Of a DNA stretch of 64,000 bases, positions 8,210 to 60,289 are shown one piece after another. This DNA is from Octopus vulgaris (lineage: Eukaryota): assembly GCA_951406725.2 (NCBI GenBank), contig OX597837.1, positions 7,254,001-7,318,000 on the forward strand. The letters are read 5' to 3'. Under the pieces are notes generated by a model, which saw only the letters and a program-made list of their open reading frames with translations, was not told where the DNA came from and searched no databases. The position numbers and the translations under genes were made by a program. Every line of letters starts with the position of its first letter. Within the stretch, counting starts at the first letter, position 1.

Positions 8210-8317
8210 AACTTATTTGTTTTATATAAAAAAAAAATCAGACAGCCTGTCTTGCTGTCAGATTCAGGAAAAAAGAGTTTCTTGCCATCCGCTTCATAGC
8301 AACGTACTCACGTGACC

Positions 8318-8362
8318 TCAGTATGGTGCAAACCGCTGGTAACCACCCCTGTAAACAGTAGC
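8318..8362 (-). CDS. RBFOX1: RBFOX last coding exon (ATVYRGGYQRFAPY*), carrying the C-terminal RFAPY PY-type NLS
   Basis: ctgttgcag|GCTACTGTTTACAGGGGTGGTTACCAGCGGTTTGCACCATACTGA. YRGGYxRFAPY* is the canonical nuclear RBFOX C-terminus. Confidence 0.97.
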   Translation of the reverse strand, partial: ATVYRGGYQRFAPY

Positions 8363-9014
8363 CTGCAACAGTGGAAAACAGAGATGATAAAACTCAAAAA
8401 CAAAATTAAATTTTCAAATAACAATAACAAAGGTGTTAGCAATTACACAATATTGAGTTGTAACCCAGATGAACTTAGTCAACCATTTGATGAAGAAGGA
8501 ACAGTAAAATATATACCAGACATAGACACACTTTAAGCTTTACAAATTTCACGAGTAATACTGTGTTTTGATAATGGTAACTTCCAACCAGGAATGGAAG
8601 ACCAAAATGCAATGGTTGTTATAGAGAAAAGATTAAAGAATTTGTGCAAAACTACTTTTTCTAACCCCATAGCCATGTCAGATAAGCATCATCATAACCA
8701 TTAGCATCTAATATTACTCATCCATGGATGATTTGAAAGGAAACTGCATGAAGCTCCTACATCTGTTTTGGCATGGTTTCCATGGCTGGATGCCCTTCCT
8801 AATATCAACCACTTTACAAAATTAAGTGCATCTCAATAAATTTCCAACTGAATTTAGAGCCAGCTTCCTTAGGGTGTGAACTGTAGAATTTTTTATAGTT
8901 CCGTACTAGACCAGAGTTCAAGAGTGCCATTATCCCCAAAGCTCTCATGATCACTGGAACAGTTGTCATATTTGAGGCCTCTATTTCAAGAACCATGTAT
9001 TTTATTATTATCAT

Positions 9015-9310
9015 CATTGAGTGAGAGAGCAGTGCATGCCATCGATATGACACTGGGGTACAAATTTACAAAGCCCAATATATCCATCATGACTACCTGT
9101 CTGATATATCACAACCATATGTCCACAATACGGTGATCTCATATCATGACAAACAGTGCCTGACCTTGGAAGTGGGGACCAGTTAGAATTTTCTGCAAGT
9201 TGAGTAGCCCATTCCACTCAAAAGGTCCTTGAATAAGAGTTGTTTAAGGATGTTGAACAAAACACTCATGTTTCCAGAGATGAATTGTTCAAACTGCAAA
9301 GAATTTCTCT
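9015..9310. mobile_element. Interspersed repeat (family F); inverted copy at 10995-11281
   Basis: attgagtgagagagcagtgcatgccatc (9015-9042) is matched by gatggcatgcactgctctctcactcaat (11254-11281), with similarity over about 290 bp. Confidence 0.8.
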
Positions 9311-9940
9311 CTATGATGCTCAAAAATTCTTTCTTTTTTTCTAAGTTCCATCATTAGAGTGACCACACCACTTCTTTAAAAACTACAATCCACAGGTGAA
9401 TTATTCAAACACCAAAATTTCTTTCATTCTTTCCTTTTTCTAAATTCTTTCATTAAAGTGACCACTCCACTTCTTTAAAAACTAGTCCCGAGGTCAATTA
9501 TTCAAACCCCCAAATTTCTTTCCTTCTTTCTTTTTTCTAATTTCCATCATTAAAGTGACCACTCCACTTCTTTAAAAATTACAGTCCAGAGGTGAATTAT
9601 TCGAACCCCAAAATTTCTTTCATTCTTTCCTTTTTCTAAATTCTTTCATTAAAGTGACCACTCCGCTTCTTTAAAAACTAGTCCCGAGGTCAATTATTCA
9701 AACCCCCAAATTTCTTTCCTTCTTTCTTTTTTCTAATTTCCATCATTAAAGTGACCACTCCACTTCTTTAAAAATTACAGTCCAGAGGTGAATTATTCGA
9801 ACCCCAAAATTTCTTTCATTAAAGTGACCACTCCACTTCTTTCAATTATTCAAACCCCCAAATTTCTTTCCTTCTTTCCTTCTTTCTTTTTTCTAATTTC
9901 CATCATTAAAGTGACCACTCCACTTCTTTAAAAACTTCAA
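9280..9940. repeat. Minisatellite with a ~98-bp unit and a 196-bp higher-order dimer
   Basis: The ttattc(a/g)aac anchor recurs at 9401, 9498, 9597, 9694 and 9793 (spacing 97/99/97/99), then in truncated units. Confidence 0.9.
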
Positions 9941-10419
9941 TCGCTCAATTTAATCATTGATGCACAAAACCCCAGTACTTATAGAAAACCGACAGTCTGG
10001 TACTATATTTTACCATCTCCTTTTGATGGATGAAAGGCAATAATTGTGATTTGATTTAAAAGTAGGAAAATGAAGATGTAACAGGAGCAATGTAATGAAA
10101 CACTGCGAAGTGTTTTGTCCATCGCCTCTGCTACTGCCTATCTGCTAATTCTGCCGATCTCACCGACACGTATAGAAGAGAAAGACAAATGGGGAAATCA
10201 AGAAAAAAAATATAATTAATCAAAAGGAAAACACACAAATGCAGGGACACACAGACAGACACAAATTAAATAATGCAGAGTTTGTTAGTGATAAGTTGGC
10301 AAAATGATGTATGAAAGTAAAAGCGAATATAATTAAAAAAAAGACAACAAAAGAAAAATCTAATTAACTAAATTCTGTGAAGAAAATAAAAAATAAAACT
10401 AATGAATGCCTAATCACTT

Positions 10420-10810
10420 TTCTTTTATCCTTTACTGGTTTCAATCATTGGACTGCAGCCATGCTGGATCACCACCTTAAAAGGTTTAGTCAAGCAAATC
10501 AACTCTAATACTTAATTTTTTTAAAACTTGACCTTATTCTGCTCCATTGATCAGTTTTCGCAGACTGCTAAATTAAGGTGACAAACACAAACCCAGGATA
10601 TCAAGCAGTAGTGGCAGACAAAAAAAAAATACATATATGTGTATACACACACACAAACAGGCTTCTTTCAGTTTCCGTCTACCGAATCCACTCAAAAGGT
10701 TTTGATCAGCCCAGGGTTATAGTAGAAAATTCTTGCCTATTGTGATATGCAATGGGACTGAACCCAGAACAAAGTGGTTGGAAAGCAGGCTTCTAACCAC
10801 ACAGCTATGT
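10420..10810 (-). mobile_element. SINE family B, reverse orientation
   Basis: ggcttctttcagtttccgtctacc...gggactgaaccc is the reverse complement of the 24510-24910 blocks. Other minus copies are at 15590-15780 and 55990-56110. Confidence 0.75.
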
Positions 10811-11292
10811 CTACATGTTCATTTGTATATGTTTTATCTTGGTATAAAAGCTGGCTTCAATAACTATTCTGTTCAATACCACAAACTGCTGGTCAGTTGT
10901 TTGACCTTAACCAGTTTAGTATGTCCCTTGGTGGCTAATGATATGTGCATCAGACCATGAGCAGAAATATTAAGGGAGCATCATAGCCATGTGTTGAAAG
11001 AAATTCTCTGGGGTATGGATAATTCACCTCTGGAAACATGGGTGTTTCATTCAACATCCTTGAATAACCTTTATCCAAGGGCCATTTGAGTCAGGATGGG
11101 CTACTTGACCTGAAGAAAATTCTAACTAAGCCCCACCTGCAGGGTCATGTGCTGTTAATCTTGATAATGAGATCACTATGCCGTGCACAAATGGTTGTGA
11201 TGCATGTGCCTGGTGTACTCTTATCAGCTGGGTAGTCATGATGAGTATACTTTGATGGCATGCACTGCTCTCTCACTCAATAATAATAATAA

Positions 11293-11490
11293 TCCTTTCT
11301 CCTTGAAATTTGGAGGGAGAGGACTAGTTGATTACATCGACCCTAGTACTTAAGTGGTCCTTATTTTATCAACCTCAAAAGGATGAAAGACAAAGTCGAC
11401 CACAGGAGAATTTGAACTCAGAACCTAAAGACGGACAAAATGTCACTAACATTTTGCTTGGCTTGCTAACGACTCTACCAGCTTGCTACC

Positions 11491-11522
<32 letters not shown>

Positions 11523-11739
11523 AATAATCCTTTCTTCTATAGGCACATGGCCTGAAATTTGGTGAGAGAGAAATAATTGATCACGTCGACACCCCAGTGT
11601 TTCACTGGTACTTAATTTATCGACCTCAAAAGGATGAAAGGCAAAATCAACCTCGGCAGAATGTGAATTCAGACCGTTATTCTGACGGCCGAAATGCTAC
11701 AAAGCACTGACATGCTAATGATTCTGCACACTCACCACC

Positions 11740-11741
<2 letters not shown>
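11293..11741 (-). mobile_element. Two tandem SINE family A copies separated by (AAT)n
   Basis: The aaaggatgaaag(g/a)caaa and gaa(c/t)tcag blocks are repeated at about 11380 and 11630. Confidence 0.8.
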
Positions 11742-11775
<34 letters not shown>

Positions 11776-11873
11776 TTAATGGGGATGATGATGATGATGA
11801 TAATAATAATGTCATGCTGCTTAGCAAAACTGAAATTCACAATATTTATGCTATTTTCTTGTTAATAATAATG

Positions 11874-11904
<31 letters not shown>

Positions 11905-12553
11905 TAATAATAACAATAATAATAATAATCACATTAGCCTATATTAAGATGACAAATGGTGAACATGAATGACTATAAATATGGTTCTTAAGACTTAGAC
12001 AAAAAGGAAAAGAATATTATTAAAAAATTTAAATTGTAAGGTTGCATTGCATTGCTTGCTTGCTTGCCAAAATGTTAAATATATATATGTATATATATTA
12101 ATTAATAATTGATAGATAAAAATAAACAGAAACAAAACAAAAATATGTTCTACACAGCCAGCATTCTTTGGTTATATCATTTAAAGCCAGTTAAAAAAAT
12201 AATAAAACAGAAAAAAAAAAGAGAAAAACAAAACAAAAAAAATTGTAGAAATCAACAGCAAAAATTTGCAAATACTAATTGGTTGATTAAAGAAAGCTTT
12301 TAATTATAGTAATTATTTCTTAGACAAGGTCACAGATTTGAGGAGATGGGATTACTAATGTAAATTGGCCCCAGCACTTTTAGTCATATTTTGATTTAGT
12401 TGATCCTAGAAAGATGAACATTAAAGTTTGGGGTCAGTAGTATTTGAACTTGAAACCCAAGGATTCAGATCAAATATTAAAATATGATCTAACAATGTTG
12501 CTAACACACCAACTTTTAACCTGTTAGCATTCAAATTACTTCGTCAAATGTAA

Positions 12554-12877
12554 AACTGACCCTTCTTCGGTTATACTGATATGGGTCCCAGTTAATTTGA
12601 TCAATGGAACAGCCTGCTCGTGAAATTAACAAGCAAGTGGCTGAGTACTCCACAGACATGTGTACCCTTAACGTAGTTCATGGGGAAATTCAGCATGACA
12701 CAGAATGTGACCTGGCCCGCCCTTTGAATTACAGGTACTACTCATTTTTGCCAGGTGAGTAGACTGGAGCAATGCAAAGTAAGTGTCTTGCTCAAGGACA
12801 CAACACATCACCAGGAATTGAACTCATGACCTTACGATCATGAGCTGAATGCACTAACCACTGAGCCACACACCTCA
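12554..12877 (-). mobile_element. tRNA-derived SINE family C (V-domain-like GTGTTGTGTCCTTGAGCAAGACACTT) with an 11-bp TSD, nested in a MITE
   Basis: The minus strand starts with GTGGCTCAGTGGTTAG (A box) and GAGTTCAATTCC (B box). TSD GTCAAATGTAA is at 12543-12553 and 12878-12888. Related copies lie at 40350-40620 and 48160-48260. Confidence 0.8.
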
Positions 12878-13604
12878 GTCAAATGTAATGTTTATTTATT
12901 CACATTGTTTTGAATTAATCATGAATTATCTTCTTGTGGCTTTGAGATTTTAAAAATGGAATTGTTTATTTTTAGTTAATCCCAGAAAGATGAACAGCAA
13001 AGTTGAGGTTAGTAGGATTTGAACTCAAAACCTAAAGATTTTGATTAAAAATTTAAGATCTGATCTAACCATGTTGCCAGTGCTTTTTGCATGGCATCTC
13101 TGTGTCAGGATATCTATATATATATATATGAATATATATATATAGATAAGAAAATTGGTTTGTGAAAGCACGTGGTTGAATATATAGAAAATAGTAAAAA
13201 GTGAAAAAACTACAGAAGACTTAAATGTTAAAAAATATATATTTGCATCAATATGTCTGAAGAATATTAAAGAATTTTTTTGAAGAATATTAAAAAAAAT
13301 TTTTTCTCTTATAATGACATAATTCAGGAGAAAGACCGGTTTCGCGTTTAGCTTTTCACACTTACGATACTTTTGCATAATAGCAATGATATATATATAT
13401 ATATATATATTTGTAAATATATAATTTTTTTTTTGTAATGAGATAAAAAAACCAAGGCAGTGTAGATTTTAGAACATTTAAAGATAGAACATTTATAAAA
13501 TAGAGAGTGATGTGGAGGAAAGAAAAGAAAATAGATTTCCTCCACCTCAGTCTCTATTTTGTATCTTATCTAAATGAACTATTTCTTAACCATCCTCTCA
13601 CACC

Positions 13605-13656
13605 GTCTCTGATGAAGGGATATAATTAATAAATATCCTGGAAACAGCTGTAAGAC
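13605..13656 (+). ncRNA. Minimal type I hammerhead ribozyme motif (Penelope-like element type)
   Basis: GTCT-CTGATGA-A-GGGATAT..ATATCCT-G-GAAA-C-AGCT-GTA^-AGAC. Stem I is GTCT/AGAC, stem II has 7 bp, stem III is the palindrome ACAGCTGT, and the NUH triplet is GUA. Confidence 0.65.
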
Positions 13657-14846
13657 CTTCTATCTATAAATGATCTAATATCTACACTGCCTTGAATTTT
13701 TTTTATCTCATTAAAAAAAAAAAATGTTATATACACATGCTGACATATGACTAATGTTGAACCCCTATTCGCATAATCGCCAAACCTGGAACTTAACCAT
13801 GGTCCATCTATAGCACTTATTCAGCATTACCTGACACCTTTGGGTCTCAATGACACCATTACCTCTCATAACCTATATAGATATAGACATAAAGAGCAGA
13901 CAACCACCATATCTGTAAGTCCATATATATATATATATATATATACATATAGACGTGCATATTCATACACACATACATATATATATATTTTTTTATATGC
14001 ACTCACACAAACACATATTTAAATTCACATGTATGTATGCATATTTGTTTTTATTCTAATAGCATATAATTATGCATATGAGCATAAATGTGGTGGGAGG
14101 AGGGGCAATTTTCTTTCAGAGCCAAAAGGCATTTGAATAAGTCAGCTTTGCTTATAGAGTTTGTGCAAGAATTTCAAAATTCCTACATCAGAAACAAACA
14201 GAATTATTCCCCAGCCTCTTTTATTCCAATATTTTGCCGTCTTTTTTGATAATTTTTTTTTCTAAATTTCCCTTGAAACCTCTTAGCTTTTTATTTTTTA
14301 TTTTATTATTTTTTTTTTACAGAGCCTAAAATATATATAATAGTTTTATATTTAATTTCAAAACTTTTTTATTTTAAAGTTAGAGAGCGAGAGAGAGAAA
14401 GAGATTAATACATTTTATAGAATGTATAAAAAATACCCTAGTTTGAAATCCTATGTTGCTTTTTAAAATTTTTTTAAGTTTTTGTTAGTCTACATATTTT
14501 TGGGATTTATTTTTTTATTTTTTTTTTGTGGGAAAATGGTTATAGCTGTACATTAATGCCCTTTCTGTATTTTTATGTTTCTGCTCACATATAAATATAT
14601 ATATACATACTATATATATACATACAATATATACATACCATATCATGATTTTAGGTGTATTTTAATGTTTTTTGGTTGTAGAATAAAAGTTAATATTTCT
14701 ATTTTGTGACATTTTATTATTTGTTTTTTACTTTCTTTTTTTCTTTTTGTTTGCTATTACTATTTGGTAACTGTTTTATTTCAGTGTTTTGAAAAATGCA
14801 TTTCATATTAAAAAGGTCTCATTAAATATATATATATATATATATG

Positions 14847-14888
<42 letters not shown>

Positions 14889-16574
14889 AACAAATGAGAA
14901 GTACGTATAGAGAGGGTATGTATATATGTGCATCTACGTATGTATATACATATATATGTATCTTTATAATAATAATTGTTGTTATTATCATTATGATTAT
15001 TATTATTATTATGTGGGGCATCAATTTGATTCCCACACACAGGCGCGTGTACACATACATAAAGCGTAATGTATTTTAGAGAAAATAACAGTAATATATA
15101 ATGTATATATTTAAAATTAATAACAACAAAGTAAAAAAAAAAAAAAAATATGGTACCTACAAGAATATATGTTTTAGAATTTATGACTAAACATAAAGCA
15201 TAAAATAAATATTTAATAAGGCTATATATATATATATGGTGGTTCTTTAATTTATATACATATATTATATATACATACATATATATATATATGCATCTAT
15301 ATAAATGCATATTAGATGCATGCTTTATGGTTTATATTCAAGAATAAATGTGTGTGTGTATAAGCACAGATATCCATGATGTATGTTACCTCAAACCAAA
15401 TGTAGGAGACTATCAAAACCTTTACTTTCAATTAAATAATGAGGTTATTCACAAGTTTTATGTTGTATAATGCAGTTATGCCTTCGACTTCAATGCACAC
15501 AAAACAAAATATGCAACGGTATGAATGCGTGTGAGTGTGCATCTACATACATTCACACACACACACACACACACACACATACTCTCTCTCTTTTACTTCT
15601 TTCAGTCATTTGACTGCAGCCATGCTGGAGCACCGCCTTTAGTCGAGCAACTTGACCCCAGGACTTATTCTTTGTAAGCCCAGTACTTATTCTATCGGTC
15701 TCTTTTGCCGAACCGCTAAGTGGCGGGGACGTAAACACACCAGCATCGGTTGTCAAGCAATGCTAGGGGGGCAAACACAAACATACATGCACGCATATAT
15801 ATACATATATATACACCTACCCTACAATGTCATTCTAAAAATAAAGAATCACATCATTGAAATCTCAAAGCTATGAGATAAGCCATGATTAATTAAAAAC
15901 AATGTGAATAAATAGGCATTACATTTCAGACTAATCTGAATGCTGAAGGGCCAAAACCTACCATCAAAATTCAATATTAACCCTTTCACATTTCAACTGG
16001 CCCATATCTGGTCAAACAATTTTGCCCATTTTATGTTCAAACTAACCAGATCCTGCTTCTTACATCTACCCTATAATGTCATTCTAAAGATAATCGCATC
16101 ACCGAAATCTTTAAGCATGGAATAATGCATAATTAATTCAAAACAATGTGAATAAATAAGCAATATATTTGAGAGATTAATCTGGGGGCTAAAAAGTTAA
16201 AAAGAACAAAACAAAAAAAGTAAGCAACAAAAAGGGATACTGGATTATGAAGTCTTTGTTAAAGTATGCGTTAGAAGGGATGTTCATGACTGGAAACCCT
16301 CTGGGCCTTAAATCTGCTTAGTCAGAGTCAACCTGTCTTTACCCTACCTTAACCCATGGTTTATACTGGCCTGTATCTGGTCAAACTATTCTACCCGTTT
16401 TGTGTTAAAACTGACCAGATCTAGCCTCCCACATCTACCCCACAATGTTATGCTTGAAATAATTACAATTAATTATGCTTGAAATCTTTCAAAACAATGT
16501 GAATAATTAAGCAGAATAGTCTGGATGTTAAAGGTTTAATTTGCTTTCCTAGCACTGGCCCAACAAAGTATTTT

Positions 16575-16715
16575 GGATTGGCAGAACTGTGAGAAGGTCA
16601 GCAAAATACTTTGCAAGAATCCGTTATCGTTTTCAGCTGTTTGAGTTCAGTCCTTGCCACAGTCAACTTTGTCTTTTACCATTCTGGGGCGGCAGAGTAA
16701 ATAAAAAGTATTGAG
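16575..16715 (+). mobile_element. SINE family A, degenerate, opposite orientation
   Basis: ggcagaac...tgagttcagtcc...gtcaactttgtctttt matches the sense strand of family A. Confidence 0.55.
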
Positions 16716-17824
16716 GCGAATTCTATTGAAGAACTGTAACTCTGTTGGTGCCACATAAAAAAAAAAAAAACACTCGTACCAGTGCGGTGTAAAAGTACCC
16801 GGTACATTCTGTACAATAGTTGGTGTTAAGAAGGGCATCCAGCCATAGAAACTATGCCAAAACAGACATGGGGTCTGGACAGCCCTTCAGCTGCTCAGCC
16901 CCTGTCAAACTGTCCAACATATGCCAGTATGGAAAAACGGATTGATGATGATATGATAATGAAACCATCTCCTATAATTCTGAGGGTTTGTACTTAGGTT
17001 ACAAATGATAGTTAATTCTTGGTTGTACTTAATTTGAATTTTTGGAACTAAAAATAATTTACTAAGTCGATTTAATTAACCAAAAATAAATATACATGTA
17101 TTAACGAAGTAAAAAATTAATAGTGCTGGCTTAAAAGAAAGAAGTAATTTTTTTTTCCTTTTTTGTTAATGAAGATAGGTTTTAGTAAAACATTTTAACG
17201 AATACACCTGAAAATTTTGAGATAGAGATAAATAGGTAGGGAGAGAGAGACAGAGAGTGAGAGAGAGAGAGAGAGAGAGAGAATGAGAAAGAGAGAGAGA
17301 GAACATGAATATAAAATCATTTCTGTTCATAAAAATTGGAAAACAATTTGGTTTTGACAAGGATGAAAGATGATGACGATGATGATTGTAATGATGGTGA
17401 TGACAATGATTGTGATGATGATGATGATGATGATGATGAGAAACTAAAGAAATAAGAAAAACAATTTCATTCAATGCAGCAATAAACAGTGATAAAATAC
17501 AGAACAATACGATTACAATAATAATAATAATAATAATAATAGTAATAATAACAATAATGAGAATAATAATAATAATTTTCAGGCCATTTTTGCCCAATTT
17601 TGGATTGTTTTTCTTTCTTTTTTTCTTTTCTTTTGCTTAAAGTATTTTTTCTTTTTTTTTTTCTTTAGATAAAAAACAAAATTGGAAAATATTAAATGCC
17701 TTTCCGAAAAAAGCACCTAAATACATATAAAATATTTTAGGCTATGGGTTGGCAGCAAGCAAACTTTAAAACACAACATCTACAATATTTTAAATCTAGC
17801 AGAAAAAAAAATATACTATACATA

Positions 17825-17865
<41 letters not shown>

Positions 17866-18010
17866 TTATATATATATTATATAAATATATATATATATAT
17901 ATGTGTATATAAATATATATTTTATAAATATATATATATGTGTGTATATAAAAAGTAATAGTGAAGAGACAAGGCACACAAGCATGCTGGGATTGAAACG
18001 GAAGACCTAC

Positions 18011-18077
18011 CCCATATCCGGTGACTGGTCCGATACTGTGTCCCAAATAGGGGTCTGCCGCATACTCCCTGCCATAC
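18011..18077 (-). CDS. RBFOX1: RBFOX penultimate coding exon, 67 nt (YGREYAADPYLGHSIGPVTGYG), phase 2-0
   Basis: tgcatgtcttacag|GTATGG...ATATGGG|gtaggt. Matches the Fox-1 C-terminal motif YGRVYAADPY and is also seen in ORF 17816..18088. Confidence 0.96.
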
Positions 18078-18085
18078 CTGTAAGA

Positions 18086-18158
18086 CATGCAACTGATGGG
18101 TCACCAAACAAACCCACTACATGCAGGCAGAGCAGCAAAATTTATTGTAACTCATGCA
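18086..18158 (-). promoter_or_regulatory. Cluster of three UGCAUG sites upstream of the 67-nt exon
   Basis: Plus-strand catgca at 18086-18091, 18120-18125 and 18153-18158 in non-microsatellite sequence. An extra GCATG lies downstream of the exon at 17983-17987. Confidence 0.75.
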
Positions 18159-28306: not shown

Positions 28307-28404
28307 CCAGCCGCGTACGTGGCTGCTGTCGCTGCTACAGTGGGGATTGCATAGCGTGTTGCAGCCGCATAGCCTGCAGCTGCATATGGCTGGGTTGTAA
28401 CAAG
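28307..28404 (-). CDS. RBFOX1: RBFOX exon, 98 nt (LVTTQPYAAAGYAAATRYAIPTVAATAATYAA), phase 0-2
   Basis: gtatttcag|CTTGTT...GGCTGG|gtaagt. Resembles vertebrate GYAAYRYAQP..ATAAAYS; phases are compatible. Confidence 0.93.
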
Positions 28405-30070: not shown

Positions 30071-30128
30071 CTGATATCGATCAGCTGCTGCATATGTCGC
30101 TAAGAAGGGGTCTTGGTGATACACTCCA
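30071..30128 (-). CDS. RBFOX1: RBFOX exon, 58 nt (GVYHQDPFLATYAAADRYQ), phase 2-0
   Basis: gcctttcag|TGGAGTG...TATCAG|gtaagt. Similar to the vertebrate VVYQDGFYGAD segment and also seen in ORF 29954..30139. Confidence 0.93.
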
Positions 30129-31681: not shown

Positions 31682-31829
31682 GCGGCGTACGGTAAAGCTG
31701 CTGCAGTTGTTGTCAAGGGCGTCGGGTGCCTGAATGCTGCTGCTGCCGCTGCTGCGGCGTATACTCCTCGTGCCGTTACAGCCGCTGCTGCTCGACCACG
31801 AGTCAACGTCACACCTCGTAAAGCAGCAG
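31682..31829 (-). CDS. RBFOX1: RBFOX exon, 148 nt, start of the Ala/Tyr-rich C-terminal domain (AALRGVTLTRGRAAAAVTARGVY...LPYA), phase 1-2
   Basis: tttctgtag|CTGCTGCT...TACGCCGC|gtaagt. GC-rich coding island resembling vertebrate AAYRGAHLRGRGR..VY..FR; phases match both neighbours. Confidence 0.93.
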
Positions 31830-46585: not shown

Positions 46586-46646
46586 CATTTGGAATTGCGG
46601 GGTTAACGGCTTTTTTGGTCATAACACGGGCAGTGGCATTGTTCAC
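46586..46646 (-). CDS. RBFOX1: RBFOX exon, 61 nt (VNNATARVMTKKAVNPAIPN), phase 0-1
   Basis: ctag|GTGAACAATGCC...CCAAATG|gtaag. VNNATARVMT is the RBFOX signature at the end of the RRM, and the exon is in frame with the 93-nt exon. Confidence 0.97.
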
Positions 46647-60180: not shown

Positions 60181-60289
60181 CATGCACCTCAATTTTTCGG
60201 CCCTCAACAACTGTTCCGTTCAGTTTTTCACGTGCTCGGTCGGCGTCAGCGCTATTTTGGAAAGTTACAAAACCAAATCCCTGCATGCA
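60181..60289 (-). promoter_or_regulatory. UGCAUG RBFOX-binding sites at the 3' splice site (60284-60289) and within the 5' splice site (60181-60186) of the RRM exon
   Basis: Acceptor TGCATGCAG| and donor |GTGCATG are read directly; a further TGCATG lies at 60594-60599. Confidence 0.85.
60188..60280 (-). CDS. RBFOX1: RBFOX/Fox-1 exon, 93 nt, second half of the RRM ([31 protein letters not shown]), phase 0-0
   Basis: The minus strand reads gtgcatgcag|GGATTTGGT...AAAATTGAG|gtgcatg. The translation carries the RNP1 motif GFGFVTF and is near-identical to the vertebrate RBFOX RRM exon of the same 93-nt size. Confidence 0.98.

Follow-up and report, generated by a model that had tools for sequence, protein, structure and literature searches.

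The 3' half of an RBFOX gene is located on the minus strand of a 64,000-nucleotide (nt) stretch of Octopus vulgaris DNA (contig OX597837.1, positions 7,254,001 to 7,318,000, in the following termed the window). Judging from its sequence and from protein models, we are inclined, if only by a little, to regard the 67-nt penultimate coding exon of this gene as a real but minor, RBFOX-repressed cassette that switches the C-terminal tail of the protein. In the nucleus, RBFOX proteins govern splicing in nerve and muscle; in the cytoplasm they control how stable mRNAs are or how they are translated. The Fox RNA recognition motif (RRM) binds UGCAUG. In the proposed mechanism, RBFOX bound to three UGCAUG elements upstream of the 67-nt exon would promote its skipping, and the last exon would then be read in a second frame, the nuclear-import tail RFAPY being exchanged for a tail ending in TEVT. 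The skip mRNA, in O. vulgaris probably a minor or cell-type-restricted isoform whose formation would depend on RBFOX, is expected to escape nonsense-mediated decay, and the TEVT protein, which would lack 7 of the 16 tyrosines of the C-terminal domain, is expected to be more cytoplasmic and weaker in splicing. The tail switch would constitute a second negative-feedback loop beside the skipping of an RRM exon. The exons and the terminal element concerned are the following:

18011 to 18077, minus strand: 67-nt penultimate coding exon, candidate cassette, phase 2 to phase 0, encoding YGREYAADPYLGHSIGPVTGYG
28307 to 28404, minus strand: 98-nt exon, upstream neighbour of the 67-nt exon, its donor being the 5' end of the skip junction
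8308 to 8362, minus strand: first part of the last exon, open in two frames, which read ATVYRGGYQRFAPY and stop (8320-8318) or LLFTGVVTSGLHHTEVT and stop (8310-8308)
30071 to 30128, minus strand: 58-nt exon at the position of the vertebrate B40 exon, as inferred from peptide likeness
8308 to 8316, minus strand: GTCACGTGA, the V-T-stop of the TEVT frame, like rat Rbfox2 and GTCATGTGA in four bivalve-like loci

With the 67-nt exon included, the protein ends in RFAPY (stop 8320-8318), in agreement with the RF(A/T)PY consensus of the hPY-type nuclear localisation signal (NLS; PMC2777236; all papers cited by PMC number are cited from the available parts of their text). A first-pass annotation of this DNA had stated that skipping the exon leads to a second ending, and translation of the mapped exons bears this out: the last exon then reads GLLFTGVVTSGLHHTEVT, which ends in HHTEVT, with the stop at 8310-8308, 7 nt apart from that of the RFAPY frame. 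In this exchange 36 amino acids are replaced by 17 and the RRM is kept. The 67-nt exon is the only one of seven internal exons whose single skip arrives at TEVT; skipping of the 58-nt exon leads to a stop inside the 98-nt exon, with TEVT out of reach.

The same pair of endings is known from mammalian RBFOX2, whose last exon is likewise read in two frames, and rat brain Rbfox2 clones carry FAPY or TEVT ends with stops 7 bp apart (PMC5577181). Octopus and rat agree at 9 of the 11 nt that follow the PY stop, and the two mismatches are synonymous in the TEVT frame; the terminal bases of the rat clones may be primer-derived from the rat reference. The T and half of the E are forced by TAC-TGA, and the chance of the remaining E-V-T-stop is about 1e-4 per comparison, a value that becomes a few times higher once the three mammalian paralogues and the post hoc nature of the finding are taken into account. 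Octopus and rat RBFOX2 thus share the FAPY and TEVT ends, but octopus reaches TEVT through other exons. In mammalian RBFOX2 the frame shift occurs at a 40-nt or a 32-nt exon and about half of the C-terminal domain is rewritten, whereas a shift of this type is absent from the B40/32-nt position in octopus, where the 58-nt skip stops early.

Three UGCAUG elements had been reported just upstream of the 67-nt exon, one of them within the acceptor tract 9-14 nt from the exon, and all three were found at the places claimed (TGCATG starting at 18158, 18125 and 18091). A GCAUG pentamer in the downstream intron had been overlooked. Relative to the splice sites of the exon, the elements are arranged as follows:

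18153 to 18158, minus strand: UGCAUG site 1, at -81 from the acceptor
18120 to 18125, minus strand: UGCAUG site 2, at -48 from the acceptor
18086 to 18091, minus strand: UGCAUG site 3, at -14 to -9 from the acceptor, inside the pyrimidine tract
17983 to 17987, minus strand: GCAUG (pentamer only), at +24 of the downstream intron

The cluster is non-random, and its position is the repressive one, ahead of an exon whose splice sites are weak. Given the background rate of the gene itself, 140 sites per 264 kb, the Poisson probability of at least three UGCAUG in a given 110 nt is about 3e-5; when the 148-nt flank was shuffled 20,000 times with its dinucleotides preserved, three or more arose 13 times. 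On the sense strand of the 264 kb, nine triple clusters are present, the other eight of which lie away from mapped exons in AT/GT/GC-alternating or GCAT-repeat sequence, a simple-repeat-like context that was judged by eye. Splice-proximal UGCAUG elements are confined to two of the ten mapped exons, the 67-nt exon and a 93-nt RRM exon. The 67-nt exon is flanked by AG and GT; its acceptor has 10 pyrimidines in 17 positions, tied lowest among the ten exons, with a second AG at -17, and its donor GGG/GTAGGT agrees with the consensus at 6 of 9 positions. Enrichment of (U)GCAUG in the upstream intron, as found here, is what is expected of RBFOX-repressed cassettes, and (U)GCAUG bound upstream of an exon favours skipping (PMC5577181).

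RBFOX bound to these elements might alternatively adjust which acceptor is used or how the intron is removed, with no switch of frame; one candidate is an in-frame AG that lies 15 nt upstream and overlaps site 3. The use of this AG would add the residues CMSYR (18078-18092, minus strand) and take the third UGCAUG into the exon. The window offers three in-frame candidate acceptors, giving exons of 58, 67 or 82 nt, and in-frame extensions at this junction occur in other protostome proteins, e.g. P0128, P0273 and P0287. Since the CMSYR extension is present in no cephalopod protein examined and the TEVT frame is left unexplained, we consider acceptor tuning improbable.

The second exon with splice-proximal elements allows an internal comparison with a tail-switching cassette:

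60188 to 60280, minus strand: 93-nt RRM exon, orthologue of a known autoregulated exon, internal positive control

This exon carries TGCATG at -9 (60289) and +2 (60186), overlapping the acceptor tract and the donor, which the first-pass annotation had overlooked as well. Among 269 proteins, most of them from molluscs, 13 are annotated with the in-frame skip of this exon (P0001-P0269, a biased sample drawn from 120 matches listed of 440 to a query containing the 67-nt exon and from 147 members listed of 248 in ten clusters). Because UGCAUG is present at both splice sites and the skip is annotated in these proteins, the dominant-negative autoregulation by the RRM exon of vertebrates seems to be kept in molluscs. 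Exon 6 of Fox-2 has three UGCAUG elements upstream and one downstream, and it is skipped on Fox-2 overexpression and auto-repressed (PMC2777236). The 67-nt exon shares with these RRM exons the flanking of a cassette by UGCAUG in the factor's own gene and matches the Fox-2 exon 6 layout of three elements upstream and one downstream, the downstream site in octopus being GCAUG only. The two skips differ in their products: that of the RRM exon is in frame and yields an RNA-binding-deficient dominant negative, whereas that of the 67-nt exon would keep the RRM and swap the tail.

The skip product itself is annotated in Octopus bimaculoides, where all seven models extending to the C-terminus carry the skip tail, and the O. 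vulgaris skip translation agrees with one of them (P0002) in 236 of 237 residues. Since introns in models of the RefSeq pipeline usually rest on read alignments, skip reads for O. bimaculoides probably exist. Inclusion is seen in O. vulgaris P0009, and the skip only in the O. bimaculoides models.

A series of observations on protein models, RNA, orthologous exons and the TEVT ending weighs against the proposed switch. Protein searches gave no inclusion model for O. bimaculoides; that the universal RFAPY tail is absent from every model of this species suggests a gap at the 67-nt exon in its assembly, and the all-skip pattern gives no inclusion ratio. The 67-nt exon occupies an island of about 300 nt between long AT repeats, the kind of place that draft assemblies easily lose. 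These findings favour the view that the exon is constitutive in practice, with skipping as splicing noise, the O. bimaculoides model as the result of a missing exon, and motifs that drive no switch. Within the 269 proteins, 252 include the exon, 7 are the O. bimaculoides skips and 10 are fragments or end earlier, so that its skip is annotated in no other mollusc, as against the 13 skips of the RRM exon; the only further skip-type model among all 425 proteins is that of the bug Nesidiocoris (P0425), a prediction on a short contig. A search with the TEVT tail (5 matches among 33 candidates) likewise gave O. bimaculoides clusters as the only skip forms, a search of limited sensitivity, as synonymous substitutions disrupt the second frame. 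A search of sequencing runs listed 24, with no match in a run on record as RNA. RNA-type contigs of O. vulgaris from four runs over 8250-17800 are mostly repeat-derived, with the last-exon bin at a depth of about 8 in two runs and uncovered in two; among the rows listed no joint or loose end is present at 8362, which in such repeat-swamped material is no evidence either way. A constitutive exon leaves unexplained the motif cluster, the restriction of the motifs to the 67-nt and RRM exons and the TEVT match with rat RBFOX2, and we regard it as unlikely, albeit with appreciable weight.

Comparison with other lineages adds points on both sides. A metagenome scan gave 35 loci. Of these, 2 were set aside as bacterial-like chance matches and another 9 as spliced or intronless, and the 24 genomic loci that were left were sorted by eye into 13 lineages. 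In all 24, a GT is present at the same phase-0 donor and an open phase-2 acceptor was found (only phase-2 acceptors being searched), such that each of them can accommodate a 3n+1 exon of 64-97 nt. The shift of frame that skipping brings about therefore appears to follow from an old intron phase, ancestral and common to other protostomes, which would suit a constitutive exon as well, and the weight that the first-pass annotation had given to the 3n+1 length as a mark of the switch was overstated. In 4 of the 13 lineages one TGCATG falls within the 110 nt preceding the orthologous exon, compared with 5.5% expected per window (P=0.004), and in 5 of 13 a GCATG does (P=0.007); downstream of the exon, TGCATG is present in none of the 13. 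This comparison covers 13 distant lineages and is made up of DNA other than cephalopod introns. The enrichment is modest: one lineage group has the upstream TGCATG in five of its eight members, and choice of an alternative member lowers the count to 3 of 13 (P about 0.03, calculated by hand). Upstream of the orthologous exon TGCATG ranks 5th of the 4096 hexamers, no other lineage has three UGCAUG, and 8 of the 13 have no upstream GCATG. Of 30 last exons, that of the window itself is the only one in which the PY stop is followed immediately by TEV[TM]-stop.

The last of these points concerns the fate of the TEVT protein. In the rat suprachiasmatic nucleus, the C-terminal NLS is absent from over half of the Rbfox2 clones, yet cytoplasmic RBFOX2 was not seen (PMC5577181), and for this reason loss of RFAPY need not mean a cytoplasmic protein. 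The skip could be real, with a TEVT protein that is partly nuclear and weak in splicing, or it could be set by tissue factors other than RBFOX; what is shared after the stop would then be an element of the nucleotide sequence and not a conserved peptide. A splicing-weak, nuclear form is favoured by the rat -12-40 TEVT isoform, which has lost splicing activity without visible cytoplasmic protein (PMC5577181); human RBFOX2 isoforms ending in PTEVT are, on the contrary, reported as cytoplasmic, the form without exon 10 (RBFOX2-dE10) moving to the cytoplasm (review PMC11380049). In four bivalve-like loci GTCATGTGA is located further down, in three of them in the TEVT frame and in L024 out of frame, and the conserved thing may therefore be a nucleotide element; the two rat-octopus differences, being synonymous in the TEVT frame, speak against this. 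Taken as a whole, this set of explanations is judged quite unlikely. In the octopus window (8308-8316) and in the loci L024, L027, L044 and L051, GTCA(C/T)GTGA is kept at a distance of 1, 9 or 13 nt from the PY stop; we take this sequence to resemble an E-box or M-box.

Two further observations were made at this end of the gene. A donor-like CAC/GTGAGT at 8312/8311 (window 8306-8314, minus strand), 6 nt past the RFAPY stop and overlapping the TEVT stop, had been overlooked in the first-pass annotation; its use, of which no trace was found, would lengthen the skip frame. A hidden intron of the 3' untranslated region at this site is unlikely, as the O. bimaculoides models read through to the TEVT stop, and one RNA-type contig continues past an end of the examined stretch, by elimination 8250, which is a weak point against use of the donor. 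TEVT was considered as a class I PDZ ligand, the consensus of which has a hydrophobic last residue, and was rejected because its last residue is not hydrophobic. A search of the ESM Atlas with the tail gave only matches below 0.9.

Tail-switching by the 67-nt exon would be related to several known systems. The 40-nt exon of rat Rbfox2 is named as an RBFOX target, and a skip of the exon orthologous to the octopus cassette is not among the 11 isoforms from 44 clones given in the available part of that study (PMC5577181). In RBFOX1, inclusion of A53 causes a frameshift near the C-terminus that removes RFAPY and leads to mostly cytoplasmic, weaker isoforms (PMC2777236; PMC3126832), and the hPY-NLS is disturbed by tags at the C-terminus (PMC3126832). 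The A53 insertion falls at the junction that immediately precedes the orthologue of the 67-nt exon (P0366 compared with P0329); unlike the octopus cassette, A53 takes effect when an additional exon is included, and its tail ends in TALVP. An A53-like 3n+2 cassette was not found in the octopus intron with a filter of at least 13 pyrimidines in 17 positions, a GTRAG donor and 20-160 nt, weaker sites being possible. The octopus cassette is thus, as had been proposed, distinct both from RBFOX1 A53, which lies in the intron upstream of the orthologous exon, and from the -40 and +32 switches of RBFOX2. Closest in mechanism to the proposed loop is exon 5 of MBNL1/2, where the factor binds its own upstream intron and the skip removes NLS function and directs the protein to the cytoplasm (PMC5786016); family and motif are different, and one half of a bipartite NLS is encoded by the 54-nt exon itself.

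In Drosophila, a splice change excludes the NLS of Rbfox1 in differentiating germ cells (PMC11021484), and regulated exons are listed without detail in the available part of PMC8742874. The cytoplasmic isoforms (RN/F) resemble the octopus case in that a single protostome RBFOX gene undergoes NLS-excluding splicing; they were not among the insect protein cluster look-ups, where isoform M (P0303) keeps the orthologous peptide and RFTPY. Should RN/F use the exon orthologous to the octopus one, the cassette would be known already and its novelty lower. NLS-less RBFOX isoforms that arise by splicing are known in mammals and Drosophila, and the octopus case is a variant of known autoregulation and NLS switching. 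The idea of the first-pass annotation that nuclear RBFOX drives the formation of its own NLS-less isoform therefore stands in part: the non-random motifs on the repressive side, the weak splice sites, the skip product annotated in O. bimaculoides and the known mammalian ending TEVT argue for it, but an NLS-less isoform as such is not new. No literature on the 67-nt exon or on autoregulation of cephalopod RBFOX was found within the coverage of the search, which excludes subscription papers; the available parts of PMC5778076 (with supplement), PMC8595405, PMC12490864, PMC12012553 and bioRxiv 2019.12.18.879874 hold nothing on the cassette.

A broader proposal, which we put forward as speculative and doubtful, is that the dual-frame FAPY/TEVT last exon represents an ancestral bilaterian device dating from the protostome-deuterostome split, which would be toggled in each lineage by a different cassette and in octopus by RBFOX at the penultimate exon, setting the nuclear-to-cytoplasmic ratio from a single gene. 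Vertebrates divide the RBFOX jobs among three genes. A tail switch under self-control would show how one octopus gene could serve in both nucleus and cytoplasm and keep its nuclear level steady. That octopus and rat RBFOX2 end in the same TEVT would make the alternative frame very old and suggests a function of its own for the TEVT tail.

With respect to the locus, RBFOX appears to be single-copy in O. vulgaris, as a genome search (47 scored candidates) gave high-identity matches at one locus only. Nine minus-strand exons from the window and the adjoining 200 kb rebuild exactly the final 256 amino acids of the O. vulgaris protein CAI9739873.1 (P0009). The RRM is near-identical to that of human RBFOX1 (E 1.5e-45), with identical LHVSNIPF and GFGF motifs, and as the single Fox-type RRM of the protein, with the RNA-contacting His and Phe residues (named in the review PMC11380049), it places the gene in the RBFOX (Fox-1) family. 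Two further coding exons were mapped in the window:

31682 to 31829, minus strand: 148-nt coding exon (AAALRG...)
46586 to 46646, minus strand: 61-nt coding exon (VNNATARV...)

Squid-like and abalone RBFOX proteins (P0005, P0020, P0026, P0027, P0133-P0146) have an in-frame insert of 17-20 amino acids at the junction of the orthologous exon with the last exon, which is the place of the NAFAPL...LQ insert of RBFOX1; neither the squid-like (P0005) nor the abalone (P0133) insert has a convincing match in the octopus intron. The genomic-length contig L023 carries the RBFOX C-terminal coding region without introns at these positions. The last intron of the octopus gene holds a 97-nt tandem repeat in five copies (window 9326-9820), and at least three alternative N-terminal coding starts, which match O. 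bimaculoides and O. vulgaris models, are located beyond the window on the same contig at about 7419300-7494800.

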